Part shown: positions 152 through 56,676 of the stretch, piece after piece
Layout of the letters: the number at the start of each line of letters is the position of its first letter
How positions within the stretch are numbered: position 1 is the stretch's first letter
Origin: a virus
Virus record (IMG/VR): IMGVR_UViG_3300034073_004654
Location: 1-64,000 of that record
DNA: 64,000 nt
Strand: one strand, 5' to 3'
Notes under the pieces: model-generated
Databases searched by the model: none
Seen by the model: the letters and a program-made list of their open reading frames with translations, nothing else
What the model was told of the DNA's origin: nothing
Program-made: the position numbers and the translations under genes

Positions 152-565
152 TCAATAGGCTTCTGGATCGCATTTTCGACAAGTTCCATCACATGATCCA
201 TTTCCGCAAGCTGGAGCATAATATTCTTTTTGCCAACGATATTTCCTATCCTCATAATCGCGATCTATTATTTTTGCTTCAAGCATATCTTCATTATCAT
301 AAAGAGTAATTTTTCTTTTATTGATGTCTACATAGTTTTCCATGCCAATTTTACGACCTTTTAGAGATTCTATGTTTTTGACTTTCTCTACAACATCTTC
401 CCAATTTTTTCCAGTTACATCATATCTTTCAGTCACATCTCCAAATAAAGGCGATATCATTACAAAATAATTTGTTTCTTTTGCTTCTTCAGAAGATTCC
501 AAGGAACCAAGCTTATATTTAACGCTATAATAATTTGCAACTTTAAGAATTGATTTTAATGACAT
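152..565 (-). CDS. Leader-family hypothetical protein with C-terminal Cys cluster
   Basis: Starts MSLKSILKVANYYSVKY (shared leader); ends CGNGSCDGTCRKC. Confidence 0.8.
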   Translation of the reverse strand: MSLKSILKVANYYSVKYKLGSLESSEEAKETNYFVMISPLFGDVTERYDVTGKNWEDVVEKVKNIESLKGRKIGMENYVDINKRKITLYDNEDMLEAKIIDRDYEDRKYRWQKEYYAPACGNGSCDGTCRKCDPEAY

Positions 566-716
566 AGTAATTATCCTTTTGACAACTGGTATTGTAAACA
601 GACATATGTTTTATAGAAGCATATAACTAAATGTAGAAAAATGTAGAAAATTATTTATTATTTTTTTTATTTTGCAAATTTTATTTTGCAAACAGGTAAT
701 ATGAGTACATATACTT

Positions 717-1934
717 GTGCAATTAGTAGAGAGGCATAGAATCAATAAAAATTCCTATAAAGGAAAGATTCTTGATAAGAAATTATTTTTATCAAAAAAT
801 CTTTATAATTCTGCCGTCTATCATTTTAGAAAACATTTTGAAATTACCGGAACTTATCTAGGTTATCATGTCTTAGATAAACAGTTCGCTTTAGAAAATC
901 AAATAGATTACAGGGCGCTACCGGCTAAAGTCGCACAACACGTATTGATGCAAGTTGATGACGCTTTTAAAAGCTTTTTTAAGGCACTTAAATCATTTAG
1001 AAAGAATCCTGTCAAGTTTACCTCAGCTCCAAAATTACCAGGATTCAAACACAAAACTAAAGGTAGAAATTTATTAATTTTCACTTCTCAAGCAATATCT
1101 AAGAAAAAAATGTCACCTTCTGGAATTGCTGAATTGCCATTACCAACAAAAATTCCACACAAAGATATCTGTCAAGTCAGAATAACTCCCGGCGACATTT
1201 ATCACACAATTGAAATAGTATACAATAAAACTGAAAAGCCTAAATCTAATGGTAATGTTATTGCTGCGTTAGACCCTGGAGTATCTAATTTAGCTACGGT
1301 TACTTTTACAAAAGGATCTCCTATAATCATTCCAGGTGGTCCGCTAAAATCTATAAATCAGTTTTATAATAAAAAACGATCTGAATTGCAGTCCAAATTA
1401 ACAGGAGATCAAAAAACTTCAAAACAAATTAAAAAACTTACTTCTAAGCGCAACGATAAAATATCTGATTATATGCATAAAGCTAGTCGATATTTAGTTA
1501 ATCATTTAGTTTCTCATGGAGTGTTCAAATTAGTTATCGGACACAACAAATCCTGGAAACAAGAGACTAATATGGGTAATAAAAATAATCAAAATTTTAT
1601 TAATATCCCGCATAGCAAATTTTTTGCTTTGTTAAAATATAAATGTGCTTTAGAAGGAATAGATATTGTAGAAAGAGAAGAAAGTTACACTAGCAAATGT
1701 AGTTTTCTAGATTTAGAGCCCATTAAGAAGCAGAAAAAATATATGGGAAGAAGATTGAAAAGAGGCTTATTTAAGTCTAAATCTGGAACCAAAATAAATG
1801 CTGATGTTAATGGCTCTTACAATATCTTGAGAAAGGAAATCCCAGAAGCTTTTAGTGATGGGATAGAGGCTGTATTAGTTCAGCCAATAAGGATAAAACC
1901 TTATAAAAATAAATTGTGGAATATTTTTCTATAA
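717..1934 (+). CDS. tnpB: IS200/IS605-family RNA-guided endonuclease TnpB (no TnpA nearby)
   Basis: SKNLYN N-terminus, RuvC-I ALDPG, EESYTSKCS, INADVNGSYNI RuvC-III. Confidence 0.9.
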   Translation: MQLVERHRINKNSYKGKILDKKLFLSKNLYNSAVYHFRKHFEITGTYLGYHVLDKQFALENQIDYRALPAKVAQHVLMQVDDAFKSFFKALKSFRKNPVKFTSAPKLPGFKHKTKGRNLLIFTSQAISKKKMSPSGIAELPLPTKIPHKDICQVRITPGDIYHTIEIVYNKTEKPKSNGNVIAALDPGVSNLATVTFTKGSPIIIPGGPLKSINQFYNKKRSELQSKLTGDQKTSKQIKKLTSKRNDKISDYMHKASRYLVNHLVSHGVFKLVIGHNKSWKQETNMGNKNNQNFINIPHSKFFALLKYKCALEGIDIVEREESYTSKCSFLDLEPIKKQKKYMGRRLKRGLFKSKSGTKINADVNGSYNILRKEIPEAFSDGIEAVLVQPIRIKPYKNKLWNIFL

Positions 1935-1970
1935 TTTATTGAACTATAATTTAATATTTAATTATTGATT

Positions 1971-5318: not shown

Positions 5319-5329
5319 ATATGAGCGGT

Positions 5330-5342
5330 AATAATGACATAT
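5330..5342 (+). promoter_or_regulatory. Candidate late-promoter motif AATA-N5-ATAT
   Basis: AATAatgacATAT upstream of leader gene 5361. Confidence 0.55.
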
Positions 5343-5360
5343 TAAAATAAGGAATTAAAT

Positions 5361-6635
5361 ATGTCGTTAAAAGATTTAATTAAAGTTGGAAATTATTACG
5401 AAATTAAATATAAATTTTTAAAATTTGCGGAAGATGATGCTCATGCTCGTTCTATTGCTTTAATGAAATTTCTTTCTGGGATAGCTAAAGAATTAGGAAT
5501 TGCAGAGCACGTTTATGTTGTAGGTGGGGCGGTTAGAAATTATCTTATTGGTCAGCCTATAAAAGATATAGATGTAGTTATTGATTCTGTATTATCTGGT
5601 TATGATTCTGAATGGTTTGCTGAGCAGATAGCAAAGAAAATACAACCTGTTAAAAGTAAATTGACTACCAATAATTACGGGGTAGCGATTTTATCTATTG
5701 ATCCATCTTGGGTATTAGATGGTCATTCTATGTTAGGTCCAAAAGGAACTGGAGAAACAATAGAAATAGCCAATGCTAGAAAAGAATCTTATGGTGGATC
5801 GGAGGGTAAAGGATATAAGCCTCATTCAGTAGAAACTGCTACCATTGAAGAAGATTTATTGCGTAGAGAATTTACATTTAATACTCTTTTGTGGAGGCTA
5901 TCTAACTTAGCAGAAGGACCGGAAAAAGCTGAAGTATTAGATTTATTGGGTCGAGGCAAGTCAGATTTATCTGAAAAAATTTTAAGAACTCCGGCAGATC
6001 CGGATAAAACATTTTCTGATGATCCTACCAGGATGTTACGAGCTATTAAGTTTGTAGCTAAATATAATTTTAAAGTTCCTGAAGATATGTTGGAGAGTAT
6101 TAGGCGCAATGCTTTTAGATTAAATCAAATGCCTTGGAATGCTGTTAGAAATATTTTAATAGATGATATTTTAAAAGCTCCGAATCCAAGAAGGTCAGTA
6201 ATGTTATTGAAGGAGATGAGGCTAGCAGATGCATTAAAAGAAATGATTGAATCCAATCCTGAATTTAAGACTTCTTTGGGAAGAAGTTTTAATGATAATA
6301 CAGATCCGATGTTATTGTTGGATCTATTGGATTTGGATTGGGACATGAAAACGCCTATAAGTTTCTTAAACAATATACAACAAGAAAGATTACGAGAATT
6401 ATTGTTAGAAATGGATGAATCCGATGGTCGCGAATATGTTAAGGCTCTAATTAAGCCTCCTGTTGATTTGCAGTTCTTTTTTAAGAATTTTAACATTCCA
6501 GAAAAAGAGCGCAAGGGAGTTATTTCTATTGCAAGAGATTCTCTTTTAGAAAATCCAAATTTATTAGAAGATCTTAAAAGTCTAACAAGTGAAGTTGAAA
6601 GTAAGTTGGGGAAAATCTGGCGTCGCAACGATTGA
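5361..6635 (+). CDS. cca: Class II tRNA nucleotidyltransferase (CCA-adding/poly(A) polymerase family) with N-terminal leader
   Basis: VYVVGGAVRN...DID, EEDLLRREFTFN, DDPTRMLRAIKF motifs; leader MSLKDLIKVGNYYEIKYKFLKFA. Confidence 0.88.
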   Translation: MSLKDLIKVGNYYEIKYKFLKFAEDDAHARSIALMKFLSGIAKELGIAEHVYVVGGAVRNYLIGQPIKDIDVVIDSVLSGYDSEWFAEQIAKKIQPVKSKLTTNNYGVAILSIDPSWVLDGHSMLGPKGTGETIEIANARKESYGGSEGKGYKPHSVETATIEEDLLRREFTFNTLLWRLSNLAEGPEKAEVLDLLGRGKSDLSEKILRTPADPDKTFSDDPTRMLRAIKFVAKYNFKVPEDMLESIRRNAFRLNQMPWNAVRNILIDDILKAPNPRRSVMLLKEMRLADALKEMIESNPEFKTSLGRSFNDNTDPMLLLDLLDLDWDMKTPISFLNNIQQERLRELLLEMDESDGREYVKALIKPPVDLQFFFKNFNIPEKERKGVISIARDSLLENPNLLEDLKSLTSEVESKLGKIWRRND

Positions 6636-6646
6636 CATTTTAGGTG

Positions 6647-6674
6647 TTGACAAGTAAAAGATCGTGGCTATGTT
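6647..6674 (+). promoter_or_regulatory. Sigma70-type promoter
   Basis: TTGACA-N16-TATGTT, AAGATC in spacer. Confidence 0.75.
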
Positions 6675-6727
6675 GTAGTGGACGGTAGAGATACCGTGCT
6701 AAAATTCTCGTTAACTGAGAGGTAATC

Positions 6728-7447
6728 ATGGATCTTGATAAGGTTATTTCCAAAGTTCAGAAGCTCTTGGCATTGTCGAAGTCGGATAATGCTGGAGAAG
6801 CGGCAGCGGCGATGAATGCGGCAAATAAGCTGATTGATCAGTATCGTTTGTCGTTGGCTGATCTGGAAACTTCTGAGGATACTTTAGATCCTATGATGGA
6901 AGATTCCGAGGCGGTTTATGAAACCGGCAGGATTGTCCAATGGAAATCTTTTTTGGTTGGAGTATTGTCGAAGCATTATGGTTGTGCTTTGTTCAATCAA
7001 ACGACTTTTCCCAAGGGTCGTAAAGTTTCGCATTATAAGTTGGTGGGGCGAAAGAGCGATATTGCCATTGTGCGATATTTCGTTTCATATCTTATGAATG
7101 AGTGCCAGCGTCTTTGTGAAAAAGAGGCGCATGGTAAGGGCAAAGTTTTTGCTAACTCGTATTGTACGGGATTCGTGGCAGGAATTCAGTCACAATTGGC
7201 GGCTAGTCGAAAAGAAGCGGAAAAGGAAGCCACTGGTTCGGCAATTGTAGCAATTAACCGCCGAGTGGAGGAAGCCAATAATTTCATGAATACTTTGTAT
7301 CGTTTGAAATCTTCTAATTCTTCTTCTCAGGCACGCACGGATTATAGCGCGTATTCGCGTGGTTTGCAGCAAGGAAAGAATTTGCATTTGGGAGCGGGCT
7401 TGAATTCCGGTGGTTCTACTTCTGGGATTCGTTTGCTGGGCAATTGA
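6728..7447 (+). CDS. DUF2786 domain protein
   Basis: KVQKLLALSKS.NAGEAAAAM..A.KL N-terminus. Confidence 0.8.
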   Translation: MDLDKVISKVQKLLALSKSDNAGEAAAAMNAANKLIDQYRLSLADLETSEDTLDPMMEDSEAVYETGRIVQWKSFLVGVLSKHYGCALFNQTTFPKGRKVSHYKLVGRKSDIAIVRYFVSYLMNECQRLCEKEAHGKGKVFANSYCTGFVAGIQSQLAASRKEAEKEATGSAIVAINRRVEEANNFMNTLYRLKSSNSSSQARTDYSAYSRGLQQGKNLHLGAGLNSGGSTSGIRLLGN

Positions 7448-7459
7448 AAATATAGGTTT

Positions 7460-7487
7460 GGGGCGGTTCCTAATAAAAACCGCCCGC
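7460..7487 (+). terminator. GC-rich hairpin
   Basis: gggcggtt...aaccgccc after stop codon. Confidence 0.5.
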
Positions 7488-7519
7488 ATTTATTTATATT
7501 TTAAAATTAAGGCAAAAAT

Positions 7520-7864
7520 ATGTCAATTGATAATTTTGTTAGAAAGAATAAAGATCTAGGATTTCGACCTGCTAAGTATTTTCGTTATGAGGGGTCGGAG
7601 GGAATTCGTAATTTAGCTCGATTGGCTAAGGGATTGGGATATGAAGATCCCATGAATCTTGGTTATTTTGATGGGGCATGTTATGGTGATTTGATTTATT
7701 TGCTCGAAGATAATCCTGGGCTTGTAGAAGTGATGCTGGATTGGTTGGAGGAAAATTTCGAGTCTGAATTGGATGATGATTCCGAGGATGATGATTCTGA
7801 AGATGACGAGGACGATGATTCTGAAGATTTGGATAGCGACGATAAAGATGATGAGGAAGATTGA
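7520..7864 (+). CDS. Hypothetical protein with acidic tail
   Basis: ORF; D/E-rich C-terminus. Confidence 0.75.
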   Translation: MSIDNFVRKNKDLGFRPAKYFRYEGSEGIRNLARLAKGLGYEDPMNLGYFDGACYGDLIYLLEDNPGLVEVMLDWLEENFESELDDDSEDDDSEDDEDDDSEDLDSDDKDDEED

Positions 7865-7875
7865 GGAGTTAAATC

Positions 7876-8364
7876 ATGGCTGAATATTATACATTGTTTT
7901 GCGAAAAGCTTGAGATTCGTACTTCTGAGGAATATGAGTGGCTAAAGCGAGTTTATGCTTGGACGCCAGAAGAAGATGGGGGAATAAATCTCGAGGATAT
8001 GGAAGCAGAAATTGAGCGAGTAAAGGAAGAACTTGGCTTTGATCTAAGTTATGAAGATTTTGATACTTTTCCAGAACATCAATATGAATTGACTTCTGAA
8101 TCTCTCAGGGTATATTCTGAGGAAGATTTAAGTACGGGAACGGTTAGCAGGATTATTCAGGGATTTCTGCGGAAATTTCGCCCTGATGAATGTTTTTCAA
8201 TTACTTGGGCTTTTACTTGTAGTAAAACTTGGGTAGGGGAATTTGCGGGAGGGGCGGTATTTATCACGGCAGATAAGATTGAAGATCATCATGTTCGTAA
8301 TTTCGTGATGCAAAAAGAAATGGAACATGAGAAAAGAATTGCAGCTAAGAAAAAGGCAATTTAA
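7876..8364 (+). CDS. Hypothetical protein
   Basis: GAGGAG SD; WAFTCSK...EFAGGAVFITA. Confidence 0.75.
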   Translation: MAEYYTLFCEKLEIRTSEEYEWLKRVYAWTPEEDGGINLEDMEAEIERVKEELGFDLSYEDFDTFPEHQYELTSESLRVYSEEDLSTGTVSRIIQGFLRKFRPDECFSITWAFTCSKTWVGEFAGGAVFITADKIEDHHVRNFVMQKEMEHEKRIAAKKKAI

Positions 8365-8388
8365 GAAAGCATAAAAGTAAGGTAAATT

Positions 8389-8640
8389 ATGGCAAAGGCA
8401 TTTGAATCTCCTGTAACTTTGGATATGGTTATTTACGATAGTTTTGATTATGTAGATGGAAAGGGAGCGACCAGAAATGTTGTTCGAAAACTAATTCCTA
8501 AAAAGCTTCCTACTTCTAAGAACGAGTCTATTCTATTTAAGGTCTATGAAGATAATGATGTGGAATTTGGTTTAATGATGATGCCAATTTCTGAGTTTAA
8601 CAAGTATGTAAACAGAGGTGAATTTAAGATTGCTTGTTAA
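8389..8640 (+). CDS. Hypothetical protein, probable paralog of 12355..12636
   Basis: Shared MPxSEFxxxVxxGxx C-terminus. Confidence 0.7.
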   Translation: MAKAFESPVTLDMVIYDSFDYVDGKGATRNVVRKLIPKKLPTSKNESILFKVYEDNDVEFGLMMMPISEFNKYVNRGEFKIAC

Positions 8641-8646
8641 AAACAA

Positions 8647-8685
8647 ATATCTCTCAAGGTAAAAATCTTGAGAGATATTTTTTTT
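8647..8685 (+). terminator. Intrinsic terminator
   Basis: atatctctcaag/cttgagagatat plus T run. Confidence 0.75.
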
Positions 8686-8724
8686 GGTTATAATTTAACA
8701 TTATAATATACTTAAGGAGAAATT

Positions 8725-9282
8725 ATGTCATTAAAAAGCATGTTAAAAGTAGCTGATTATTATAATGTTAAATATGGTTTTGATAAATATAGCGGAGATG
8801 TAAGGGTAGAACAAACGGGTCAGGGCAAAGTAGCGGAGTTGCTTTTCTCACAAAATCCTGCGGCGAATTTGTTGAGCTTAAAACAAGCTAGCAATGATCT
8901 AATCACTATGACATTTGTAGATAAAATTAGAAAGTTATCAGAAGATAAAGCTGAAGGAAATAATCTTACTGTTTCTTTATATCCTGAAATTTTGGTAGCA
9001 TCTCAAAACTCAGGGACTATTACTCCCAAGGCAACTATAGATATTACCATGTCTCCTGGTGAGAAGTCTTTTATAGGAGATCCTGAAACTCAAAAATTAA
9101 TTAATGAATTACAAGTAGCTTATAATCAAGAATATAAAAAATTATCTCGTCAGAGTTTTGAAGCCAGAGCAAAAGAGATAAGTAGCAAAAATCAATTTTA
9201 CGAAAATTTGAATGCAGCTGGAAACGATGAAAATACTGTTAAATCTAAATTCACTGTTTCTCAAACGGATGTGTTTGAATAA
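8725..9282 (+). CDS. Leader-family hypothetical protein
   Basis: MSLKSMLKVADYYNVKYGFDKYS; AAGGAG SD. Confidence 0.8.
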   Translation: MSLKSMLKVADYYNVKYGFDKYSGDVRVEQTGQGKVAELLFSQNPAANLLSLKQASNDLITMTFVDKIRKLSEDKAEGNNLTVSLYPEILVASQNSGTITPKATIDITMSPGEKSFIGDPETQKLINELQVAYNQEYKKLSRQSFEARAKEISSKNQFYENLNAAGNDENTVKSKFTVSQTDVFE

Positions 9283-9409
9283 TTTAAAAGTTTCATGATT
9301 CAATTAATCAAAGATCTTTCGGCAACTCTTGCTGTTATTAGCGGAGTTGCCATTTTCTTTTACTATTATTTCTTGTTTTGATAGCTGCAAACTATCTGCA
9401 ATTAAGTTG

Positions 9410-9437
9410 TTGACAGGTAAAGATCGCGCCTTATGTT
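9410..9437 (+). promoter_or_regulatory. Sigma70-type promoter
   Basis: TTGACA-N16-TATGTT; AAGATC spacer; upstream AACTATCTGCAATTAA box. Confidence 0.75.
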
Positions 9438-9476
9438 GGTAGGGTCGCAGATAGAAGCGATCAAAGGAAGCAAATT

Positions 9477-9986
9477 ATGAACTATACTCTTGAGATTGTT
9501 CCCGATATCGATCCGATTAATCCTCGTGAAGATAGGGAATTTAGCACTATCTATTATAGTTCTTATCGTTATACTCTTGGTGATGAGTGCGTTTCTAAAG
9601 AGGAGATTGATCGCATTATCGAAGATAAGGATATGGTGTATCTTCCGGTTTATGCTTATATCCATGGTGGGGTAATGCTGAATACTTCTGGATTTTCTTG
9701 TCCTTGGGATTCTGGAATGAGCGGTATTATTGCGGTATCCAAGGATAAGATTCGCCGGATTTACAATACCAAGCGAGTTACTAAGAAGATTCTGGAGCAA
9801 GTTAATAATCGTCTTAAGGCGGAAGTTGAGGAGTTTTCTCAATATCTGAACGGTGAAGTCTACGGTTTCCAGGTTAAGGACGCAAACGGAGATATTGTGG
9901 AAAGCTGTTACGGATTTTATTCCGAGGAGGATGCAGAATCCGAGGGTAAGACAGTTTTGGATTATTTCAATAAGAAGGCGGCTTGA
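9477..9986 (+). CDS. Conserved hypothetical phage protein
   Basis: NPRE...LPVYAYIHGG...CPWDSG...YLNGEVYGF. Confidence 0.8.
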   Translation: MNYTLEIVPDIDPINPREDREFSTIYYSSYRYTLGDECVSKEEIDRIIEDKDMVYLPVYAYIHGGVMLNTSGFSCPWDSGMSGIIAVSKDKIRRIYNTKRVTKKILEQVNNRLKAEVEEFSQYLNGEVYGFQVKDANGDIVESCYGFYSEEDAESEGKTVLDYFNKKAA

Positions 9987-10142
9987 TATGATTCAATATT
10001 ATTCCGGGGAGAATTTCGATAAGATTACGAACCTAGCATTGAAACTGGCAGATCAAGCCAGAAATAATGGTAGGGTTAATCCTCAATATGGATATTCTTC
10101 TGAGGATTGGGCGGAAGCTCAAAAGTTGATTCATAACAAGGC

Positions 10143-10170
10143 TTGACGTTAAAAGATTCTGAGTTATCTT
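10143..10170 (+). promoter_or_regulatory. Sigma70-type promoter
   Basis: TTGACG-N16-TATCTT, AAGATT spacer. Confidence 0.7.
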
Positions 10171-10197
10171 ATAAGGTAAAGGATAAGGGAGGTTATT

Positions 10198-10644
10198 ATG
10201 GGTTTGGATATGTATCTCAGCCGTAAGACGTATGTTAAGAATTGGGGATACGATACTTGGAAGGTTACAGTTACCTTTGAGGGTAAGCCTTCTCATATCG
10301 ATCCGGCAAAGATTGCTTATATTGAGGAGGAGATTGGATATTGGCGAAAAGCCAATCAAATTCATAAGTGGTTTGTGGATAATGTCCAAGATGGAAAGGA
10401 CGATTGTGGGGATTATTATGTTTCCCATGAGAATTTGGCAAAGTTGAAGGATCTTTGTCAAAAGGTTTTGGACAATCCTAATTTGGGATCTCAATTGCTT
10501 CCTACTACCAGTGGTTTTTTCTTTGGTAATACGGATTATGACCAGGATTATCTGGATGATCTGAGGGAAACTATTAAGATTTGCGATGATGCCATGTCGG
10601 TGGAATCTGGCAAGGCAAGTCTTTACTATAGTTCTAGTTGGTGA
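10198..10644 (+). CDS. Conserved hypothetical phage protein
   Basis: MGLDMYL...YWRKANQIHKWF...LLPTTSGFFFG...YSSSW; GGAGG SD. Confidence 0.85.
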   Translation: MGLDMYLSRKTYVKNWGYDTWKVTVTFEGKPSHIDPAKIAYIEEEIGYWRKANQIHKWFVDNVQDGKDDCGDYYVSHENLAKLKDLCQKVLDNPNLGSQLLPTTSGFFFGNTDYDQDYLDDLRETIKICDDAMSVESGKASLYYSSSW

Positions 10645-10701
10645 AATTAAGTAGCTCCAAGGGATAATCTTTAGAGTGAGGTTATCCCTTGGAGTTATAA
10701 T

Positions 10702-10995
10702 TTGAGAAAGTTGTTTCATATGAACAGAATTGGATATTGGCAGCATCTTATGTTGAAAAACATCTTTAATACCAGGCAAGGAGCTTTTTATTCTCTTATG
10801 GAGCTGCGGGGAAATGCCAGGAAATACGAGCCAGTATATCAAAGGCATTTGCTAAAGGCGATTGAATTGCATAATGCTGGTGTGATTTCTGGAAAAAATC
10901 GAAAGCGTTGTTCGCCTATTCCTATGGGATATCGAATTGAGATTGGAAAATATGGTCCTAAAGGTGGTAAGGGATATTTGCTGGTAAAGATTTGA
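10702..10995 (+). CDS. Hypothetical protein
   Basis: ORF track; start uncertain. Confidence 0.55.
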   Translation: MRKLFHMNRIGYWQHLMLKNIFNTRQGAFYSLMELRGNARKYEPVYQRHLLKAIELHNAGVISGKNRKRCSPIPMGYRIEIGKYGPKGGKGYLLVKI

Positions 10996-11012
10996 GTGAA
11001 TATGTCGCTGTG

Positions 11013-12260
11013 GTCAATTACCACCAGCACAAGGCTGGTGGCTTGTAAGTAGCATTTCTGCCCCTACAATAGGCTGATTGACAACAGCCCCATTGGATAG
11101 CTTATAGCTATCCAATGCTCTAATGCTAATATTTCTACTAGCATTCAAGTCTGCATTTAGTTTAAATCCACAGCTTTTACAGCAAAAATTAGCTTGATTT
11201 TTCCTGTTCTTTTTATCTATGTTTCCACACTTGCTACATTTTTGACTAGTATAAGCTGGATTTACATAAACTACATTTATGCCTTTTGCTATTGCTTTAT
11301 AAATCAAAAACTGTTCTAACTGATAATAATTCCAGCTATTTAAAGCTGCTCTTTGACGTTTTCTGACTTTTTGATTTCTAATACCAGTCAATTTCTCTAA
11401 AGCAATAGTGTCACCTGAATTTAAACTGTTTATTATTTCTTTACTTATCTTATGATTAAGATCTGCCTTAAACCGTTTTTCCTTACCTGATAATTTCTTA
11501 AGGTGTCTTTTAGCAGATTTGCTTCCATTTTTTTGTAAGTTACTTCTTAATGTTTTACGTTTCTGGCAAATTAATTTTAATTTATCTCCAGAATAAAATT
11601 TATTATTTGAAGTAACAGCTAGTTTGTTTATTCCTCTATCAACTCCTAAAAATTTTCCATTCGATTTAATATCTTCAATATCTTTTTCAAAAGATATGTG
11701 TAAGTAGACCTTTCCTTTTTTAAGGACAAGATCAGCACTGGTATATTTCCATCCATCAAAATAATGCTGATAATATACTGGAATATTTAGTTTAATTTTT
11801 TTCCTACCATCAATTGTTAAAATTGACACTTCTCCAGATTTAAGCAAAGAATAGCTATTACAATCTAATCTAATAGAGGACAGTTTGGATTGTGGACATT
11901 TGCTGTATTTATTTTTACTTTTAATGCTTTTTAAAGCTTCTACTGCTTTGGTTCTGGCTGAAATAGCTAATTGTGATGGTAGGTTAAAATTGGCTCTACA
12001 ATCTTGGTAAGTTAATTTATGAAGTTCAATAGCGTTAGATATTTTATTATCATAGCCAACTTGACAAACTAAGTTAAATGCATTAGTATAGGCTTGCAAC
12101 GATGGTAGAATTTGATCTACCTTCATATTAAGTTTTAACTTAGCAGTCCTACATAGCTTCATATATGAATATATAAAGTTATGCATAGAAATTTAAAAAA
12201 ATTAGAAAGGGGCAATTCCTCCACCAGCACGAGGCTGGTGGTATCCTTGCCAAGAAGATT
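11013..12260 (-). mobile_element. IS200/IS605 (IS1341-like, TnpB only) element
   Basis: Matching subterminal hairpins caccagcacRaggctggtg at both ends; inserted 3' of TTCAT on minus strand; right end TTGAC; no target duplication. Confidence 0.9.
11014..12162 (-). CDS. tnpB: RNA-guided endonuclease TnpB
   Basis: GVDRG, IALEKL, YTSQKCSKCG...FCCKSCG zinc finger, NADLNASRNI. Confidence 0.93.
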   Translation of the reverse strand: MKLCRTAKLKLNMKVDQILPSLQAYTNAFNLVCQVGYDNKISNAIELHKLTYQDCRANFNLPSQLAISARTKAVEALKSIKSKNKYSKCPQSKLSSIRLDCNSYSLLKSGEVSILTIDGRKKIKLNIPVYYQHYFDGWKYTSADLVLKKGKVYLHISFEKDIEDIKSNGKFLGVDRGINKLAVTSNNKFYSGDKLKLICQKRKTLRSNLQKNGSKSAKRHLKKLSGKEKRFKADLNHKISKEIINSLNSGDTIALEKLTGIRNQKVRKRQRAALNSWNYYQLEQFLIYKAIAKGINVVYVNPAYTSQKCSKCGNIDKKNRKNQANFCCKSCGFKLNADLNASRNISIRALDSYKLSNGAVVNQPIVGAEMLLTSHQPCAGGN

Positions 12261-12354
12261 ATGAAATTGGCAAACATCGGGCTCTTAAAAAGCCCCGCTT
12301 AACGGTTTATCGGTTCAAATCCGATCAGCGGCACCAATAATTCAACATAAAACC

Positions 12355-12636
12355 ATGAGTGATTTACAAGTTTTAGAAGATATCCAGGTTTGCACGGTAG
12401 TAATTGATAGAACACCATATACCAGTTCCGGTGCAATTTTAAGGAAACATGAATTAATGGTGGTTTCAATTGCTCCAAAATGGAATCATGACTTTATCAG
12501 TTTAGCCAAATTCATTGTTTTGGGGAATGGAAATTCCGATATTCGGATTTTTAAGATGCCTTTTTCTGAATTTAAAGATAAAGTGGAAAAAGGCGATTAT
12601 GTAGTGGTAGATATTGTGGCAGATCAATCGCAGTAA
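12355..12636 (+). CDS. Hypothetical protein, probable paralog of 8389..8640
   Basis: Shared C-terminal motif. Confidence 0.7.
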   Translation: MSDLQVLEDIQVCTVVIDRTPYTSSGAILRKHELMVVSIAPKWNHDFISLAKFIVLGNGNSDIRIFKMPFSEFKDKVEKGDYVVVDIVADQSQ

Positions 12637-12962: not shown

Positions 12963-13002
12963 AATAATATGATGTTTTATGCAATTGCTAAGAAGGAGAG
13001 AT

Positions 13003-13209: not shown

Positions 13210-13211
13210 AA

Positions 13212-48669: not shown

Positions 48670-49281
48670 TCAATAATATTTATTTTTTGATCTAACTTTC
48701 GCTGCTTCTGTATTGGGGACTATTGGTTTTTTGCTTCTTTTTTTCTTTTGGTCGGTAGCTTTTCTTTGTTTTGGAGTTAAGCTACGCCATTTCTTCTCTG
48801 GAAGATATCTGCCTTTGGCATCATTGGAATCTAACAAAATATCATTTGCTTTATTTTTATCTTTTTTCTTAGATTTTTTCTTGTAATCAGAAAGATACAT
48901 CCATTTTTGCTTGGTCCACTTTTTCATTTTATTAGTTCTGGCGGTGGGTTTTTTACCACGATAACCGCCTCCACGTTGTTTATAAAGTTTAGTGGCAAGC
49001 TGCATTGCTCTGGCAGAATGTTTTCCGCCCATTCTAGATTTGGCTTCGCTTTTACACTTTGCCCATAAAGAAGGATTGGTTTTTGTGGCAATTCCAGATT
49101 TTTTCTTTTGCTTCTTTTTAGCAGATTTAAAAATCTCTTCTTTTTTCATTTGGGCTTCGATTTGTTTTAAATCATCTAACAAATCTGAATAAGCCATTTC
49201 TTCTTGATATTTGTCTTTATAAATATCTGCCACTTCTTTAACGCTAAGGTCTCTAGATTGAGTGAATTGCTTAAAAGACAT
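48670..49281 (-). CDS. Basic DUF5872-like protein with acidic leader ending KSA
   Basis: TNPSLW...SARAMQLA...YK.RGGGY...KWTKQKW...RYLP. Confidence 0.7.
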   Translation of the reverse strand: MSFKQFTQSRDLSVKEVADIYKDKYQEEMAYSDLLDDLKQIEAQMKKEEIFKSAKKKQKKKSGIATKTNPSLWAKCKSEAKSRMGGKHSARAMQLATKLYKQRGGGYRGKKPTARTNKMKKWTKQKWMYLSDYKKKSKKKDKNKANDILLDSNDAKGRYLPEKKWRSLTPKQRKATDQKKKRSKKPIVPNTEAAKVRSKNKYY

Positions 49282-49293: not shown

Positions 49294-49785
49294 TTAAAAT
49301 CTTTTTCTTTGTTTTAGATATTCTTCCCGCAATTCTTTAGAAGAAAAATCTGTTTTATAATATTTTGAAGCTCTTATAATTTTCTCTGATGCTTTCAATG
49401 ACGAATCTTTAATTGCGTTAGAGAGTTCTTCCCAATAACCCTGCCAAGACTCGGGCGATCCTTCATGCCAAGGAGTGCTTTGAAACAATTCAAATGCTTC
49501 TTTAGCTTTATTCATTTCTTCAAAAGCTTGATTTAAAAGCTTAGCTACTTCAGATCCAGCAGCAGATAACTTTGAATAAGATGTTAATTTCCATTCTTTT
49601 AAAGAACGATAAATAAATTTTCCACTTTTACTCCACTCTGTAAAGTTCCACTCTTCCCCCATAGTATCGGGTGGAAGATTTTTCATGTTATTAATGACTT
49701 TAATATGAGGCATCAATGAATTAATAATTTTCATTGTTTGACTTGGTATATTTTCTAACATTGCTAATTTAATATTTTTATTCAT
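49294..49785 (-). CDS. Hypothetical protein with short leader (IKLA)
   Basis: MNKNIKLA; preceded by AATA-N5-ATAT. Confidence 0.65.
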   Translation of the reverse strand: MNKNIKLAMLENIPSQTMKIINSLMPHIKVINNMKNLPPDTMGEEWNFTEWSKSGKFIYRSLKEWKLTSYSKLSAAGSEVAKLLNQAFEEMNKAKEAFELFQSTPWHEGSPESWQGYWEELSNAIKDSSLKASEKIIRASKYYKTDFSSKELREEYLKQRKRF

Positions 49786-50497: not shown

Positions 50498-51034
50498 TCA
50501 ATCTTCTTCGTCATCTTCCTCGTCATCTTCTTCAATTTCTTTAAAGAAAACGGCGATGCCTCCTTCATATGCTGAATTTACTATATTGTAATCAATATTA
50601 TCAAGTGGGACATATTCTACATACATATCTTGATCGCTATATGTAGTATATTTTTTTAATAAACTTAAAGCATATGCCTTTTGCTCTTCAATGCTTTTAT
50701 ATGGTTGTTCCGTAAACATGCCAAATCTAAAAACAAATGTCGGTTTTTTGCTGAAATAATTAGCGTCTGGTATTGCCATTGTAGATTCAATGATGCATAC
50801 TGGTGCGTCTGATCTGGGTGGCTTACCTTTTTGAGGTTTAAATACAGACTGCCTAGGAAATACAGTTTTAATTATATTTTTAGTAGATGGGTCTAAAAGT
50901 CCCACCCAAGAATCAAATATAGCTTTTTGCTGACCTTCGTCTTTGACCTTTGGAAGCTTTGCTATTTTTGTTAAGTATTCACTTGTTCTTCTTAATAAAA
51001 GATCGGAAGCTTTATTTAAAAAATCATATTTCAT
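50498..51034 (-). CDS. Leader-family hypothetical protein
   Basis: MKYDFLNKASDLLLRRTSEYLTKIA; GAGGA SD. Confidence 0.7.
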   Translation of the reverse strand: MKYDFLNKASDLLLRRTSEYLTKIAKLPKVKDEGQQKAIFDSWVGLLDPSTKNIIKTVFPRQSVFKPQKGKPPRSDAPVCIIESTMAIPDANYFSKKPTFVFRFGMFTEQPYKSIEEQKAYALSLLKKYTTYSDQDMYVEYVPLDNIDYNIVNSAYEGGIAVFFKEIEEDDEEDDEED

Positions 51035-52285: not shown

Positions 52286-53221
52286 ATGAATAAATACGAA
52301 AAAATACTTTTATCATGTGCTGCCTTTGATGAAATGATAAAACGAGCCGTCAGACGGACTTTATCTACACCCGTTTCTCCTAGACCTTCATTTAGGGCTC
52401 CAAGGTCCAGCCCTCCAAGCATTCCGGTATTAGATCCTCCAACAATTAGAACGCCATCAAGTCGAGCACCTACAACCACTTTAGATGGAGGTCCTCCAAC
52501 AGTTGTGGATAGTCGCCCACCTATGTCCTCTCCTGTTTCATCTCAATCAGCCGCAACAGTTGTGGATAGTCGTCCCCCTATTTCATCTTCTATGTCATCT
52601 CCTTCTCTTGTTCCGCCTGCTAGTAAAGTTCCACCAGCGGCAGCCACTGCTTTGAAAACTAGATTGAGAAGTCTTTTAACTAGCGGCTTAACTGGTGGCA
52701 AAGACTTATTCTCAAAGAATCCCAAAAAAGCCGCAGCAGCAGTTTTATTAGGTGGCGTTGCACTTATTTATTATGCTTTAAAAGGAAAATCTCCCTCAAC
52801 TGACAATGAAGAAATGAAAGAAGTTATTGATATTGCGATAAAAAACAATCTATCAGAACTTCCAAAGCCTGCCGAATTATTTAACAAATTAAATGATATT
52901 AATTCTTTTTTCCAAGAAAAAGCTGCTAAAAATACAAAAATTGCAGAGAAGTTTGGGGTATACATAGAGAAGACAAGTGATATAATTAATGATTTAAATT
53001 CATTATCTAATATTCAATTAGATGTTAATAATACGCAATCTGTTGTTAATTTCATTAAAGAATCTAAAAGAATGGAACCTAAGTTGGGTGAATATCTTGC
53101 CATTTCAAAATTAACTCAAGATAAGATTGTAATGCCAGAGTTAAACCAAGAAATTGGTGAAGTTAATTCCATGTTAGAACAATATCAAGTTCTTTTTAGC
53201 CAAGTCAAAAATATAAGTTAA
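52286..53221 (+). CDS. Leader-family protein: Pro/Ser-rich region, TM helix, helical domain
   Basis: MNKYEKILLSCAAFDEMIKRA; AAAAVLLGGVALIYYAL. Confidence 0.8.
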   Translation: MNKYEKILLSCAAFDEMIKRAVRRTLSTPVSPRPSFRAPRSSPPSIPVLDPPTIRTPSSRAPTTTLDGGPPTVVDSRPPMSSPVSSQSAATVVDSRPPISSSMSSPSLVPPASKVPPAAATALKTRLRSLLTSGLTGGKDLFSKNPKKAAAAVLLGGVALIYYALKGKSPSTDNEEMKEVIDIAIKNNLSELPKPAELFNKLNDINSFFQEKAAKNTKIAEKFGVYIEKTSDIINDLNSLSNIQLDVNNTQSVVNFIKESKRMEPKLGEYLAISKLTQDKIVMPELNQEIGEVNSMLEQYQVLFSQVKNIS

Positions 53222-53227
53222 GAAGTT

Positions 53228-54373
53228 ATGAAAAAAATAAAAAACATATTAGATCAGTCGATTGAATTTGAATCTATAGTTAAAAAAGCTTTTTGGAAGT
53301 CATTTAAAAGTCTTGTGACTGGGACTCGACCTATGAGAGTTCCCCCTGGAGGAACTAGACCAATACCTAGAAGGGTTCCACAAGGCTTTAATGTTATGGA
53401 AGCAACGCCTACCGGACCAGTGTTAAAAAGAGGAATAAAAGAAATCAGTCCAGGAGTTTATGAATTAGAACCGGGATTTAAAATAAATCAAACTGCTGGA
53501 ACAATAGAACCAATTAAGCCAAGTTTGCCACCTGGATATTCTCCTGAATCTGGAGGAATGTTAGCTAAATTGACTGATGCTGAATTATTAAGTTTATATG
53601 ATACAGACTTAAAGCAACTACAATTTAAAATTTCAGATTTAGACAAATTGCCCGATGCCTGGAAAAAGCCCGATGGTAGTGATATAAATCTAACCCCGGA
53701 ACAAATCGCAACAGTGCAATCAGAAGTTCGAATTCAAAATCAAAAAATCAGAGATAAAATAAAAGAATTAAAAAAAATAGATCGCAGCACGGTTCGAGGT
53801 GAAGCTTGGTCTGAATTAAAAGGTTCTAAGGGATTTAAATTTACCGCTGGTACGAGTGCTTTAATTGGTCTTGTTACAATTTATAAATTATTTTCCAATG
53901 ACGATCCAAAAACGGATAGCGATGAAAAGAAAAACGTCATCAATAAAAGTCCTTTATCAAGTTATTTGGCAGGAGCACCAAACTCATTAGAAGTGATTAA
54001 GAATTTAAATTCGCTATTAGCAATTTTAAATTCTGTCATGAATCAATCAGGTGAGCTTCGCTCACAAGATCTTGCTACGCTAAATAATTTTATTAGAGAA
54101 ACTAGAACGGCTAAAAGATCCATGGAAAATTTTGCTAAATTAAAATTAGATTTAGATGATATGAATTCAGTTCAGCAATATATAATAAATTTAAATTCTT
54201 TAGAAGAAGCATTAATGAAATTTAATGTTACATTGATGGATATATCTGATATTGCTGCCAAATCAAGAAATATGAAACTATTAAGCATTGTCAACCAATT
54301 AGATGAAGCTTTTTCTGAATATTCCAATATAATCACAAAGGCAAAAAGCTTATCAGCTTCTGACAATATTTAA
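53228..54373 (+). CDS. Leader-family protein with TM-like helix and helical domain
   Basis: MKKIKNILDQSIEFESIVKKA; TAGTSALIGLVTIYKLF. Confidence 0.8.
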   Translation: MKKIKNILDQSIEFESIVKKAFWKSFKSLVTGTRPMRVPPGGTRPIPRRVPQGFNVMEATPTGPVLKRGIKEISPGVYELEPGFKINQTAGTIEPIKPSLPPGYSPESGGMLAKLTDAELLSLYDTDLKQLQFKISDLDKLPDAWKKPDGSDINLTPEQIATVQSEVRIQNQKIRDKIKELKKIDRSTVRGEAWSELKGSKGFKFTAGTSALIGLVTIYKLFSNDDPKTDSDEKKNVINKSPLSSYLAGAPNSLEVIKNLNSLLAILNSVMNQSGELRSQDLATLNNFIRETRTAKRSMENFAKLKLDLDDMNSVQQYIINLNSLEEALMKFNVTLMDISDIAAKSRNMKLLSIVNQLDEAFSEYSNIITKAKSLSASDNI

Positions 54374-54385
54374 TAAGAAAAAATT

Positions 54386-55159
54386 ATGAACAATAAAATT
54401 TTAAACTTAGTCGGTTCTATTGATAAATTTCAAACCTTAATTAGAAAAAATGCCGTTGCTCCTGCCGCTGCTGGTGCCGCCGCGAGCACCACTCAAATAG
54501 CAATATTAATAGCTCTAATTCCAATTGTTAGTCGCGGGATAGACAAATTTTTTAACACTACTAAACTCCCAGATGATGCTAAAAGAATTCAAGAAAATTT
54601 ATTAGATTATAAAGAAGATTATCAAGATGAAGATTGGTTTAAGCCATTTGCTAATGAATATAATAGTTTTTTAGATAAATTAAATATTTTAATTAAAGGA
54701 AATGAAGAAATAATTAACTTATTAGCCCTTCCTAAGGGCGAAGAAACTAACGAAAAAATTGCTATAGAAATACAAAAATTTCTAACTGCCCTGGGAGAAG
54801 CTGAAAGATTAGCCCCTGGAGTAAATGCATTTCTGGAAGAAAACAAAAATTCTGCCACCAAAGCCCTTGATTTTGTCGGAGAAACCTTTGGCGCTCTTGG
54901 AATAAAAACAGATTCCATGGCTGCACAAGCTGGAATAATGTCATTTTATCAACATTCTCAATACGAGAGACTCAAGTTAGAACAAATATTAATTGACGCT
55001 ACTAAAGAAAAAAAATCTACTCCTTCACAGGGCAGAAAATTCGATCTCAATCAGCCATTAATTGAAGAAGAAAAACAGAAGGGATCGGAAAGAAATCCTC
55101 CAGCTCAAATTTCTTCCGTTGAAGATTTTGCAAACATATTTAATGTTGAAGCCGAATGA
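54386..55159 (+). CDS. Leader-family protein with hydrophobic helix
   Basis: MNNKILNLVGSIDKFQTLIRKNA; IAILIALIPIV. Confidence 0.8.
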   Translation: MNNKILNLVGSIDKFQTLIRKNAVAPAAAGAAASTTQIAILIALIPIVSRGIDKFFNTTKLPDDAKRIQENLLDYKEDYQDEDWFKPFANEYNSFLDKLNILIKGNEEIINLLALPKGEETNEKIAIEIQKFLTALGEAERLAPGVNAFLEENKNSATKALDFVGETFGALGIKTDSMAAQAGIMSFYQHSQYERLKLEQILIDATKEKKSTPSQGRKFDLNQPLIEEEKQKGSERNPPAQISSVEDFANIFNVEAE

Positions 55160-55188
55160 ATAAGACCACTTTACATCTTGGAATATAA

Positions 55189-56676
55189 ATGAGAAACTAT
55201 TCAAAAATTCTTAAACAAGCAAAAAATTTTGAAAAAAAAGTACATGAAGTCAATCCTTCAGTTGTCGTAACAGAACATGAAGGCGTAGACCCTGTTTCTT
55301 ATATGGCTTTTAATAATTTAAAAACCGTTATCAATGATGCCACCGAATTATTATCTATTTTAAATAATGAAGATGATCTTCCTCAATGGGTAGATGAAAT
55401 GTTAGCTATGTCTAAAGGCAATGTGTCTAAAGCTTTAGATTATGTCCGATCTGAAAAAACTGAAACAGAATCTTTGCTAGAAGATGAAGACCATGATCAT
55501 GAATTAATAGCAGAGGGTCAATATCGAGGCTTCTTATCTTCTGTTAAAGACGTTTTTAATAGACCTAAAACAGATCTCGAAATTAAATTGGTACAAATTG
55601 ACGAAGAACTTAGAGATGCTTTCTTATCTTATGGTCCATCAGAATTATCATTGACTAAAAATTTAAATTTGGCTCAAAAATCAATTAATGAAAATAACTT
55701 CTTAAAAGCAAGAAAGCATTTAACGGATTTTAATAATGCCTTGCAATTCATGTCAAATAGAGCAACTGATTTTATTAATTATTCTAAGCTCCCAGGTAAA
55801 CAAGCTGGGTTTTTCGATTTTTTTAAAAGTAAAAAAGAACAACCTGTTCGCACAGAGATTTCTCAATTATTGTTTGAACAATTTAATAAATTAATTCTTG
55901 CTGGGGAAAGTACCTTAATAGCGGTTAAATCTATTTTTGAAATGCTGGATAAATATCGTTCAGATAAAAATATTAATGCTTATATAAGCATGTTAGAATC
56001 ATTGAAAAATGAACAAAGAATTTTTAGTGAAAAATTCGACACTCTTAAAAAAGAATATTTTATGTATTTAGGCGAAACTGGCAGTGAAATGATTGGTAGT
56101 ACTTTAAAAGAAATGAAAAAAGACCTGTATCAGCCTAAAGAAGATAAATATGTTGGAGTTGGCGGATTGGAAACATCTCAAGCTCCAATTAAAGCATTAA
56201 AATTTGAAGTTCCGCCACCAGAAGCTAAAAAAGATCAATTTACAGGATATGATGTTTCCGCTCCAGAATCTGAGTTATCTCCTTGGGCAAAACAAATGTT
56301 GCCAGTTTCTCCCAAATTTGATCGTGTAGATGAAACGGGAGAATGCCCATGCGGTAGTAGATTGCCATGGCTTGCATGTCATGGATTTGACGAGAATAAA
56401 TTTGAAAAAATGAGGGATGAAATAACGGACAAAATGGCAAAAGACATAATGATTAAAAAGAATATTTCTTACAAAGAAGCAAAAGAAGAAGTAAAAGAAG
56501 AAGCAGAAAGACAAGCAGAAATTAGATATTATAACTGGGTTAATCTTTATCTTGCTCGTAAAGCCAGGATAGAAGCAGAAAAAGAAGCTAAAAAAGAAGA
56601 GAATCGTCAAAAGAGAATTAAAGATTATTTAAAATTTGAATCTAATGTTGAACATATATTTCCACAAAGAGCATAA
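55189..56676 (+). CDS. Leader-family multidomain protein with SEC-C motif
   Basis: MRNYSKILKQAKNFEKKV; DLPQWV; internal KQAGFFDFF; CPCGSRLPWLACHG. Confidence 0.75.
   Translation: MRNYSKILKQAKNFEKKVHEVNPSVVVTEHEGVDPVSYMAFNNLKTVINDATELLSILNNEDDLPQWVDEMLAMSKGNVSKALDYVRSEKTETESLLEDEDHDHELIAEGQYRGFLSSVKDVFNRPKTDLEIKLVQIDEELRDAFLSYGPSELSLTKNLNLAQKSINENNFLKARKHLTDFNNALQFMSNRATDFINYSKLPGKQAGFFDFFKSKKEQPVRTEISQLLFEQFNKLILAGESTLIAVKSIFEMLDKYRSDKNINAYISMLESLKNEQRIFSEKFDTLKKEYFMYLGETGSEMIGSTLKEMKKDLYQPKEDKYVGVGGLETSQAPIKALKFEVPPPEAKKDQFTGYDVSAPESELSPWAKQMLPVSPKFDRVDETGECPCGSRLPWLACHGFDENKFEKMRDEITDKMAKDIMIKKNISYKEAKEEVKEEAERQAEIRYYNWVNLYLARKARIEAEKEAKKEENRQKRIKDYLKFESNVEHIFPQRA

Follow-up and report, generated by a model that had tools for sequence, protein, structure and literature searches.

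Internal proteins of bacteriophage T4 (IPI, IPII, IPIII and Alt, the last an ADP-ribosyltransferase) carry a capsid-targeting sequence, a short amphipathic N-terminal tag of about 10 residues on otherwise unrelated proteins, which closes with the conserved word (L/I)-x-E and is cut by gp21; the tag genes lie in variable (hyperplastic) loci with body exchange. The MuF polymorphic toxins, which belong to temperate phages, have an invariant N-terminal part that targets the head, followed by enzymatic or toxin domains that vary at the C-terminal side and are delivered together with the DNA, and encapsulin cargo-loading peptides, usually C-terminal and not removed, bring unrelated enzymes into an HK97-fold shell. 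In the giant phages phiKZ and SPN3US, propeptides of head and ejection proteins are cut by gp175 and gp245, respectively, at (S/A/G)-x-E, often internally, and no shared portable leader family has been described for them (PMC5694885, PMC10052503). Bacillus phage G (Donellivirus) is the only cultured megaphage, and the portions of its literature available to us make no mention of an N-terminal tag (PMC12484599, PMC8570332).

The window analysed here, a stretch of 64,000 nucleotides, is a fragment of an uncultured giant phage with Bacillus phage G as kin, and its 77-kb contig makes up about 21% of the genome, some 360 kb long, of a phage G-like megaphage. In the window at least 17 proteins, for the most part unrelated, open with one type of short, swappable helix that closes with hydrophobic-hydrophobic-Lys-x-Ala. 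The T4 features of a short N-terminal amphipathic tag, a conserved closing word, tag genes in variable loci with body exchange and an ADP-ribosyltransferase-like enzyme in the cargo are all found here. The tag is, however, about 20-23 residues long, its closing word is hh[KR]xA (h, hydrophobic) and not the gp21 motif, and this lineage has an HK97-like protease of the kind found as gp19 in phage G. With at least 17 genes in 64 kb the system also exceeds that of T4 in size, its packaging and cleavage being presumed. A giant phage with many putative head-internal proteins that one protease would process at a short motif also recalls phiKZ and SPN3US; the word is not (S/A/G)-x-E and the phage lineage is another. 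The MuF toxins share the constant N-terminal part with variable bodies, yet use a whole portal-proximal domain without a cleavage word instead of a 20-residue peptide; the encapsulin peptides share the delivery of unrelated enzymes by a short peptide, and here neither a shell gene of encapsulin type nor a corresponding context is present.

The first-pass annotation had counted about 23 members of a single leader. All 23 start sites are present in the window as given, and 17 members are supported: six of group A, three of group B and eight looser forms with profile or homologue support; the remaining six are only plausible. The genes are as follows, and are named below by start position, a trailing minus marking the complementary strand.

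152-565, complementary: group A tagged gene, 137 aa, by HMM; tag in the first 23 codons (497-565)
5361-6635, forward: group A tag and CCA-adding/poly(A) polymerase-type nucleotidyltransferase (PolyA_pol head domain, residues 51-209)
8725-9282, forward: group A tagged gene by profile, 185 aa, body without assignment
18391-19056, complementary: group A tagged gene by profile, 221 aa, helical body
33821-34624, forward: group A tag, K-E-A, widespread phage head-module domain ('AGKYDHIDFKPP...', residues 30-150) and C-terminal helices
35018-35383, forward: group A tagged gene, 121 aa; relatives P0163 and P0167
31367-32389, forward: group B tagged gene, 340 aa, acidic body
32407-33255, forward: group B tag and probable ADP-ribosyltransferase-like region (residues 155-206; own match weak)
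34627-34992, forward: group B tagged gene, 121 aa; C-terminus weakly resembles that of 31367
26426-27547, complementary: looser tag (MDIKLLNRAVNLFAKLAAS) by alignment, lost in leave-one-out; 373 aa from the chosen ATG
27956-28624, forward: looser tag ending LVKLA, 222 aa; 11.6 bits, first non-seed rank
28833-29744, complementary: looser tag and DUF5591-like domain (slightly below the Pfam cut-off)
39618-40913, forward: looser tag, Ala/Pro-rich hydrophobic stretch and 'DGLWGPKTQKAL' (peptidoglycan-binding-like, by eye); 12 bits with an HMM built without it
52286-53221, forward: looser tag (..MIKRA), Pro-rich region, one hydrophobic helix and coiled region
53228-54373, forward: looser tag (..IVKKA), Pro-rich region and hydrophobic helix; weak paralogue of 52286
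54386-55159, forward: looser tag and Ala-rich hydrophobic helix; similar protein in the related genome G001 at 282122
55189-56676, forward: 'hhKxAxxFEKK'-type tag, 'VVxEHEGVxPVSYMA..DDLPQW' pro-domain and unrelated body
40981-41343, complementary: plausible member only (..ENIKTA; G001 homologue ..LFKTA), without profile support
42111-42515, forward: plausible member only (..YIKIA), without profile support
44298-45665, complementary: plausible member only (short form ..KLLKWAQ), without profile support
48670-49281, complementary: plausible member only (VKEVADIYKDKY, displaced group-A-like), without profile support
49294-49785, complementary: weak candidate, unsupported by profiles
50498-51034, complementary: plausible member only (..YLTKIA), without profile support

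Groups A (MSLKxhhKVANYYxVKY; 565-, 5361, 8725, 19056-, 33821 and 35018) and B (MSKIxKhLxxCxxFSxLVKKA; 31367, 32407 and 34627) are unambiguous families, as had been proposed, with leave-one-out HMM scores of 15-26 bits, whereas reversed-sequence controls do not exceed 7 bits. An HMM seeded with only seven looser tags (27547-, 27956, 29744-, 52286, 53228, 54386 and 55189) scores the group B tags at 14-21 bits and 39618 at 12 (control maximum 7.3), and since group B is recovered in this way the looser set and group B form one family. HMM comparison leaves group A unconnected to this family, and it is a common pattern and exchange on the same body family that tie group A to it. Six members (41343-, 42111, 45665-, 49281-, 49785- and 51034-) were recovered by no profile and are plausible by eye only, and three further members fail in leave-one-out. 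The bodies behind the tags are mostly unrelated, BLAST among the 23 proteins giving just 3 weak pairs. The tags are amphipathic, with a mean hydrophobic moment of 0.42 as against 0.32 for other N-termini (p = 0.006), and are predicted to be helical over residues 3-30 in an AF2 model and 3-24 in a second prediction. Conservation acts on the protein and not on the DNA: Ala10 of group A is encoded by GCA, GCC, GCG and GCT, other invariant or nearly invariant residues likewise use several codons, and the six group-A copies in the genome show 35 synonymous codon differences and differing upstream DNA. A Sec or Tat signal peptide, which would call for a hydrophobic core of at least 10 residues ahead of A-x-A and, for Tat, for twin-Arg, was considered and rejected on inspection of the sequences: the tags lack a hydrophobic core, and in their amphipathic run a Lys, Asp, Asn or Glu recurs every 2-4 residues.

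Nearly all leaders had been said to end in K/R-x-A/S. As a mark of the tag this bare tripeptide is weak, being found within residues 13-30 of 18 of the 23 tagged proteins and also of 27 of 69 other proteins (39%). The five-residue word hh[KR]xA is specific: 14 of the 23 claimed proteins have [LIVMF][LIVMF][KR]xA within their first 32 residues, as against 1 of the 69 others. When all proteins of the contig are taken without pre-selection, hh[KR]xA is 12-fold enriched in the first 30 residues (p = 5e-12), and N-terminal enrichment is also seen in the related genomes G001 (2.1-fold) and G004 (2.5-fold) and in phage G (1.9-fold). An independent regex test in G001 placed 6 of 7 matches 5-8 residues past the start Met, with 0.77 matches expected overall. 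Relatives with 30-51% GC show related words.

That the tag is portable, as had been suggested, is borne out by a search of 1.84 billion proteins with the group-A profile. It matched 65 protein clusters, of which 64 start at residue 1, and the bodies behind the matches fall into 45 BLAST-unrelated groups; column information drops to background past residue 23, the end of K-x-A (K21 in 42 and A23 in 30 of the 64). The tag is thus shown to be a portable module, strictly N-terminal on many unrelated proteins and ending at K-x-A. Protein P0310 is identical to 32407 in 21 of 21 tag residues and diverges directly after K-S-A. In blastn comparisons of close relatives the homology covers the upstream DNA and the tag only (about 60-140 nt) and the bodies are swapped, which shows that the tag is exchanged between bodies together with its upstream DNA. 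For instance, L105 and L124 have the upstream DNA and tag of the 8725 gene with a different body, and L116 and L102 carry tagged orthologues of the 5361 CCA-type enzyme. Also, the upstream motif AATAA[TG]-N4-9-YAT precedes 8 of 17 tag genes as against 2 of 137 others, in line with co-regulation of the tag genes; it is not visibly shared by the head genes of G001.

A circumstantial link from the tags to the head is suggested by the body of 33821, which in cultured phages is a domain of head modules. Synechococcus phage S-CBS4 has it between the portal and capsid genes, in Vibrio phage 1.013.O it forms the N-terminus of a 657-aa protein just upstream of the capsid gene, and in P0091 and P0100 it is fused to Peptidase_S78_2. 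Homologues of this body with N-terminal extensions of 19-227 aa number 82, and in 61 of them [KR]-x-A-[AQSG] directly abuts GKYDH, while ten tagless homologues begin with M(A)GKYDH, i.e. right after K-x-A. Most homologues are headed by the 55189-type tag and pro-domain, and on this body family group-A and 55189-type tags replace one another.

The 77-kb contig itself has no head gene and no head maturation protease gene, and the link between protease and tag is therefore drawn through relatives that are 35-60% identical in core genes. These relatives have genes for an HK97-like capsid protein and for a head protease of the type of phage G gp19. In G004 the major head protein matches phrog_2522 (E = 8e-63). 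It shares 45% identity with phage G gp27, and this, together with the protease type, makes phage G the nearest cultured relative. At L139:3882-7691 of G004 a match to phrog_18299 (head maturation protease domain, E = 7e-14) was obtained, and this protease type keeps 'DH' and 'VSMG', with the conserved His and Ser, in alignment to gp19; an HK97-like protease in a head module is found in the relatives only. Searches with Pfam S78 and S78_2 gave no match, and PF03420 (gp21-type, Peptidase_S77) and PF07068 (gp23-type) gave none in G001-G005, where it may be noted that no control genome matched either. Phage G gp19 has four hhKxA words in 300 aa. The capsid proteins of the lineage have an N-terminal extension of about 42 aa, absent from gp27, with [IL][VT][KR]xA at about residues 22-27; this K-x-A is not singled out because the capsid N-terminus is conserved along its whole length. 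No clear clustering of hhKxA words was seen in head proteins of G001 or G004. The scan with tag HMMs that the first-pass annotation had proposed matched no capsid, scaffold or protease protein in G001, and hhalign of the tag profile with the capsid N-terminus profile was not significant. The capsid-targeting idea is partly supported, by circumstantial evidence: the head-module cargo domain, in relatives the gp19-type protease and the capsid word, and cargo types that recall T4 Alt and ejection proteins.

Our preferred reading, to which we give nearly even but not quite even weight, is that the tags may be address-and-release peptides of a phage G-like megaphage that load proteins into the head. 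The N-terminal amphipathic helix (about 20 residues) would dock the protein inside the assembling prohead, on scaffold, protease or capsid protein, and the closing hydrophobic-hydrophobic-Lys/Arg-x-Ala would be the site at which the HK97-like head maturation protease of the lineage removes the tag. The freed cargo would remain in the head and then enter the host along with the DNA. Docking to the head, cleavage and injection are steps that we infer from the sequences. The cargo set would include ADP-ribosyltransferase-like enzymes, a CCA-adding enzyme, the head-module domain, which is basic and helical, and proteins that combine a single membrane helix with a peptidoglycan-binding-like motif.

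The predicted helix and its amphipathic character would also serve a docking peptide that is never cleaved, whose partner is a part of the virion other than the head interior or a hub outside the virion, with K-x-A as helix C-cap and domain boundary. We consider this unlikely, as in the 33821 family K-x-A tracks the body boundary across the whole range of extension lengths, independent of the N-terminal helix, and the tagless forms begin right past it; such behaviour is more readily expected of a processing site than of a helix cap. Somewhat less probable in our estimate is a recognition peptide for a non-capsid machine, such as AAA ATPase-driven export or membrane insertion, a modifying enzyme or regulated proteolysis. 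A membrane-anchored AAA ATPase gene (57387-58391; 62% identical in G001) does lie just downstream of the 52286-56676 cluster, and several tagged proteins have one membrane helix, but the ATPase link is a single adjacency and the head-module location of the 33821 body would be left unexplained. Nor was a maturase gene (e.g. radical-SAM/SPASM) seen beside tag genes among the Pfam and PHROG matches of the window and related loci, where most neighbours are unannotated.

If the looser members were chance look-alikes, and only two small paralogous families (A and B) shared N-termini by descent, there would be no common system. The six members without profile support, the three lost in leave-one-out and the missing HMM link between A and B point that way; the unrelated bodies behind the same tag, the interchange of group-A and 55189-type tags on one body family and the N-terminal enrichment of hh[KR]xA in four genomes argue against it, and we regard it as improbable. 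The conserved 5' end might also serve chiefly as a cassette for recombination and expression, made up of promoter, ribosome site and initial codons, by which new genes are captured and expressed and whose peptide has no sorting role. The swapping of bodies behind shared upstream DNA and the common upstream motif are what such a cassette would give, yet the group-A copies keep their residues while differing upstream and at synonymous sites, and the residue pattern is kept in 65 clusters, with related words across the wide GC range of the relatives, and we rate the cassette about as improbable as the chance look-alikes.

In its wider form the address-and-release reading, which we hold slightly more tentatively, is that phage G-like megaphages may possess a large evolvable protein-delivery system, in which a portable 8-23-residue tag with hydrophobic-hydrophobic-Lys-x-Ala loads dozens of interchangeable enzymes (ADP-ribosyltransferases, tRNA CCA-adding enzyme, membrane and cell-wall proteins) into the capsid, an HK97-like protease of so far undescribed specificity frees them, and the customised set is injected with the DNA. 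PARP-like domains are found behind the tags (in P0310 directly after K-S-A) and recall T4 Alt, and the tagged membrane-helix proteins with the peptidoglycan-binding-like motif resemble ejection proteins; for a CCA-adding enzyme as virion cargo we know of no precedent. If the reading holds, the T4 strategy of loading into the head and then cutting would be a general one, independently tuned in giant phages and not confined to T4; here both the tag and the protease family would differ from those of T4, and the cargo would be far more numerous. Injected proteins, which are the first weapons a phage has against host defences, could then be predicted from megaphage genes by a sequence rule, and a short tag would suggest itself for packaging foreign proteins in large capsids. 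A direct test is possible in phage G, the cultured relative, which has its own version of the tag. That version differs in being only about 8 residues long; its bearers include gp13, gp38, gp126, gp251 and gp610, and MKRL[IFM][KRS]K(A) heads at least nine phage G ORFs, of which three are ADP-ribosyltransferase-like.

The first-pass annotation had listed 23 genes that share an N-terminal helix (the tag, which is about 20-23 residues long), and all 23 start sites are present as written. Its groups A and B are supported by leave-one-out profile scores of 15-26 bits, with reversed sequences reaching no more than 7 bits. MSLKxhhKVANYYxVKY (h being a hydrophobic residue, [LIVMF]) is common to the six genes of group A (565-, 5361, 8725, 19056-, 33821 and 35018, named by start coordinate with '-' for the minus strand), and MSKIxKhLxxCxxFSxLVKKA to the three genes of group B (31367, 32407 and 34627). 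A profile made from seven looser tags alone (27547-, 27956, 29744-, 52286, 53228, 54386 and 55189) scores 14-21 bits on the three group B genes and 12 bits on 39618; the looser tags, group B and 39618 therefore form one family. Seventeen of the listed genes are confirmed as tag-bearing, and the remaining six (41343-, 42111, 45665-, 49281-, 49785- and 51034-) have no profile support and are plausible by eye only. The bodies behind the tags are mostly unrelated, as had been proposed, since BLAST linked only three pairs of the 23, and those weakly, and searches of Pfam and PHROGs with the tagged proteins gave almost no matches. Amphipathicity is higher in the tags than in other N-termini. It is the protein that is conserved: the invariant residues use several codons, and both the upstream DNA and the synonymous sites vary among within-genome copies, for which reason an element acting at the DNA level was rejected. 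It may be noted that in 55189 the tag is accompanied by a pro-domain, 'VVxEHEGVxPVSYMA...DDLPQW', which recurs on dozens of homologues elsewhere.

Nearly all of the tags had also been described as ending in K/R-x-A/S. The bare tripeptide discriminates only weakly, as 39% of other proteins have one at residues 13-30, but specificity is gained with the five-residue word [LIVMF][LIVMF][KR]xA. How far this word is enriched within the first 30 residues was calculated over all proteins of 100 aa or longer.

Table. N-terminal enrichment of hh[KR]xA.
This contig: 12-fold, p = 5e-12
G001 (related viral record): 2.1-fold, p = 0.004
G004 (related viral record): 2.5-fold, p = 5e-5
Phage G: 1.9-fold, p = 0.02

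The body of 33821 has 693 homologues. N-terminal extensions of 19-227 residues are present on 82 of the best 120, nearly all beginning with a tag of the type hhK[LIV]A[EDQ]xF, and in 61 of these 82 the word [KR]-x-A-[AQSG] stands immediately before the conserved GKYDH. Another ten of the best 120 lack any extension, their sequences beginning with M(A)GKYDH. Since K-x-A abuts GKYDH across the extension lengths, the word moves with the body boundary and not with the helix. A cut after it would leave a mature N-terminus equal to that of the tagless forms. This pattern is the strongest single argument for K-x-A as a functional site.

The group A profile (first 30 residues) was searched against 1.84 billion representative proteins at E <= 0.001. 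It found 65 clusters, with the match starting at residue 1 in 64 of them and at residue 5 in one, and their consensus is MSLK[NS][IL]IKVANYYNVKYGF[DN]KxA. Column information is at background beyond residue 23, and by BLAST the tagged bodies make up 45 groups unrelated to one another. Group B tags are seldom met in databases. The tag of one database protein, P0310, is identical to that of 32407 at 21/21 residues and the two diverge directly after K-S-A, behind which P0310 has a PARP-type domain above the Pfam cut-off. A scan of IMG/VR with the back-translated group A tag gave no match, and a metagenome scan gave 26 loci, of which about nine are true relatives of the contig. At the tag genes of the nine close-relative loci, DNA homology is confined to the upstream region and the tag, some 60-140 nt in all, after which the bodies differ, as in the relative locus L126:

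L126 8975-9112, homologous at the DNA level to window 33878-33741.

A regular expression derived from group A, without use of G001, gave 7 matches in that record vs 0.77 expected; six of the seven lie 5-8 residues past the start Met in ORFs of at least 197 aa. Tag HMMs gave only one clear match in G001. In their exact form, the tag families are lineage-specific.

The window makes up the first 64 kb of a single 76,892-bp contig of about 35% GC, recorded as a linear virus that is 21% complete (IMG/VR, CheckV). BLASTP matches in G001 (361 kb, 97% complete) were found for 42 contig proteins, most of them at its 250-337 kb. A more remote relative, G004 (371 kb, terminal repeats, 51% GC, 100% complete), shares the structural module with G001. 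The G004 protein for the major head subunit hits phrog_2522 at E = 8e-63 and shares 45% identity with Bacillus phage G gp27. The contig is therefore a piece of a roughly 360-kb megaphage, uncultured and belonging to the phage G lineage. Past the window end, at 65084-69556 of the contig, lies a trio of YeaH-, SpoVR- and PrkA-like genes (names assigned by eye), 72-87% identical to G001 263164-267839 and the best conserved block between both phages. Two TnpB-type ORFs with OrfB_IS605 and Cas12f1-like_TNB domains were also seen in the window:

717-1934, plus strand, TnpB-type ORF
11014-12186, minus strand, TnpB-type ORF

No head genes are present on the 76,892-bp contig. Between its portal and capsid genes, G004 encodes a 1269-aa protein with a domain matching the head maturation protease phrog_18299 at E = 7e-14; in the alignment of this protein with phage G gp19 and a 1582-aa G001 homologue, 'DH' and 'VSMG' are conserved. 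The Pfam families S77, S78 and S78_2 found no prohead protease, and PHROGs alone revealed the one in G004. In phage G gp19, hhKxA occurs four times within 300 residues. The capsid proteins of the lineage (120 sequences) are extended at the N-terminus by about 42 residues that phage G gp27 does not have, and [IL][VT][KR]xA lies in this extension at about residues 22-27. The product of G001 95133-97136 (phrog_1645) was rejected as a capsid protein, being a cyanomyophage-type 'virion structural protein'. Three head genes of G001 (L083-L101; 103146-105406, 118554-123302 and 140963-143971) contain selfish inserts: one with a homing-endonuclease-like ORF splits the capsid gene, a LAGLIDADG insert lies in the portal, and an intein-like insert ending ..VANWIVVSN|C stands directly before the protease domain of the protease protein.

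The tags had been read as portable addresses by which cargo is loaded into the head, cut at the KxA word and injected. Modularity and the K-x-A boundary are borne out by the sequences; head loading and cleavage we infer, at a little under even confidence, as the best-supported explanation of the tags. Against it, the tag HMMs had been expected to match head proteins and those of G001 were not matched. A profile-profile comparison (hhalign) of the tag with the capsid-protein N-terminus was not significant, nor was the clustering of hhKxA in head proteins, and the capsid-protein N-terminus of the lineage is conserved throughout. It is also possible that the tags serve export or membrane insertion. 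There is room for this because a conserved membrane-anchored AAA ATPase, 62% identical in G001, adjoins one tag-gene cluster and could be an alternative partner of the tags:

56788-58391, plus strand, PP-loop (TilS-like) gene, then membrane-anchored AAA ATPase, directly downstream of the tag-gene cluster 52286-56676.

Among known systems, the tags would work most like the capsid targeting sequence of T4, also a portable N-terminal tag with a closing protease word at variable loci; a probable Alt-like ADP-ribosyltransferase is among the cargo of the window phage. However, the closing word of the window tags is not (L/I)-x-E, and the protease and capsid protein of the lineage are of the phage G/HK97-like kind; the tags are therefore outside the T4 family. 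They also differ from the phiKZ and SPN3US propeptides, whose motif is (S/A/G)-x-E (PMC5694885, PMC10052503). Phage G has a short tag of its own: at least nine of its ORFs, unrelated to one another, start with MKRL[IFM][KRS]K(A), and three of these have FFHGT/LYHGT ADP-ribosyltransferase-like bodies.

Tagged ORFs of phage G (NC_023719.1): 11937, 28218, 73330, 179204(-), 207449, 245994, 255160, 258975, 446709.

The multi-omics study of phage G (PMC12484599) mentions neither such tags nor that of phage G itself, and they are also missing from a recent jumbo phage review (PMC13282480).

The window cargo includes a CCA-adding-type nucleotidyltransferase, whose normal N-terminal helix begins directly behind the tag, and a DUF5591-like protein. 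The 32407 product is probably ART-like; its AF2 model made without alignment (pLDDT 33) is unusable. Four tagged proteins combine a single hydrophobic helix with a segment rich in Pro or Ala, and one of the four has a peptidoglycan-binding-like motif as well. The motif AATAA[TG]-N4-9-YAT was found upstream of 8 of 17 window tag genes vs 2 of 137 other genes, and may be the promoter of a single temporal class. The G001 head genes do not visibly have it, which counts against the capsid reading.

AATAA[TG]-N4-9-YAT sites: 20-70 nt upstream of 5361, 19056(-), 32407, 33821, 35018, 39618, 52286 and 55189.

Residues 31-160 of 33821 (gene 33821-34624) form a widespread basic phage domain, 'AGKYDHIDFKPP..RGLELRKKNKGKGGL..WGGDPGRSWANK', which has no Pfam family and matched only viral hypothetical proteins in the ESM Atlas. 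Its AF2 model is all-helical (pLDDT >90), but it matched no PDB fold and therefore adds nothing on function. Its gene context suggests a link to the head: the body lies between the portal and capsid genes in Synechococcus phage S-CBS4, and in Vibrio phage 1.013.O it is the N-terminus of a 657-aa protein directly upstream of the capsid gene. The domain is often joined to others, including Peptidase_S78_2 in two metagenomic proteins and an intein in the database protein P0095. In locus L002 of the record G002, a homologue of the body is adjoined by more than 20 small tandem ORFs of MORN-like 'HREDGPA(I/V)E' repeats (5327-20122).
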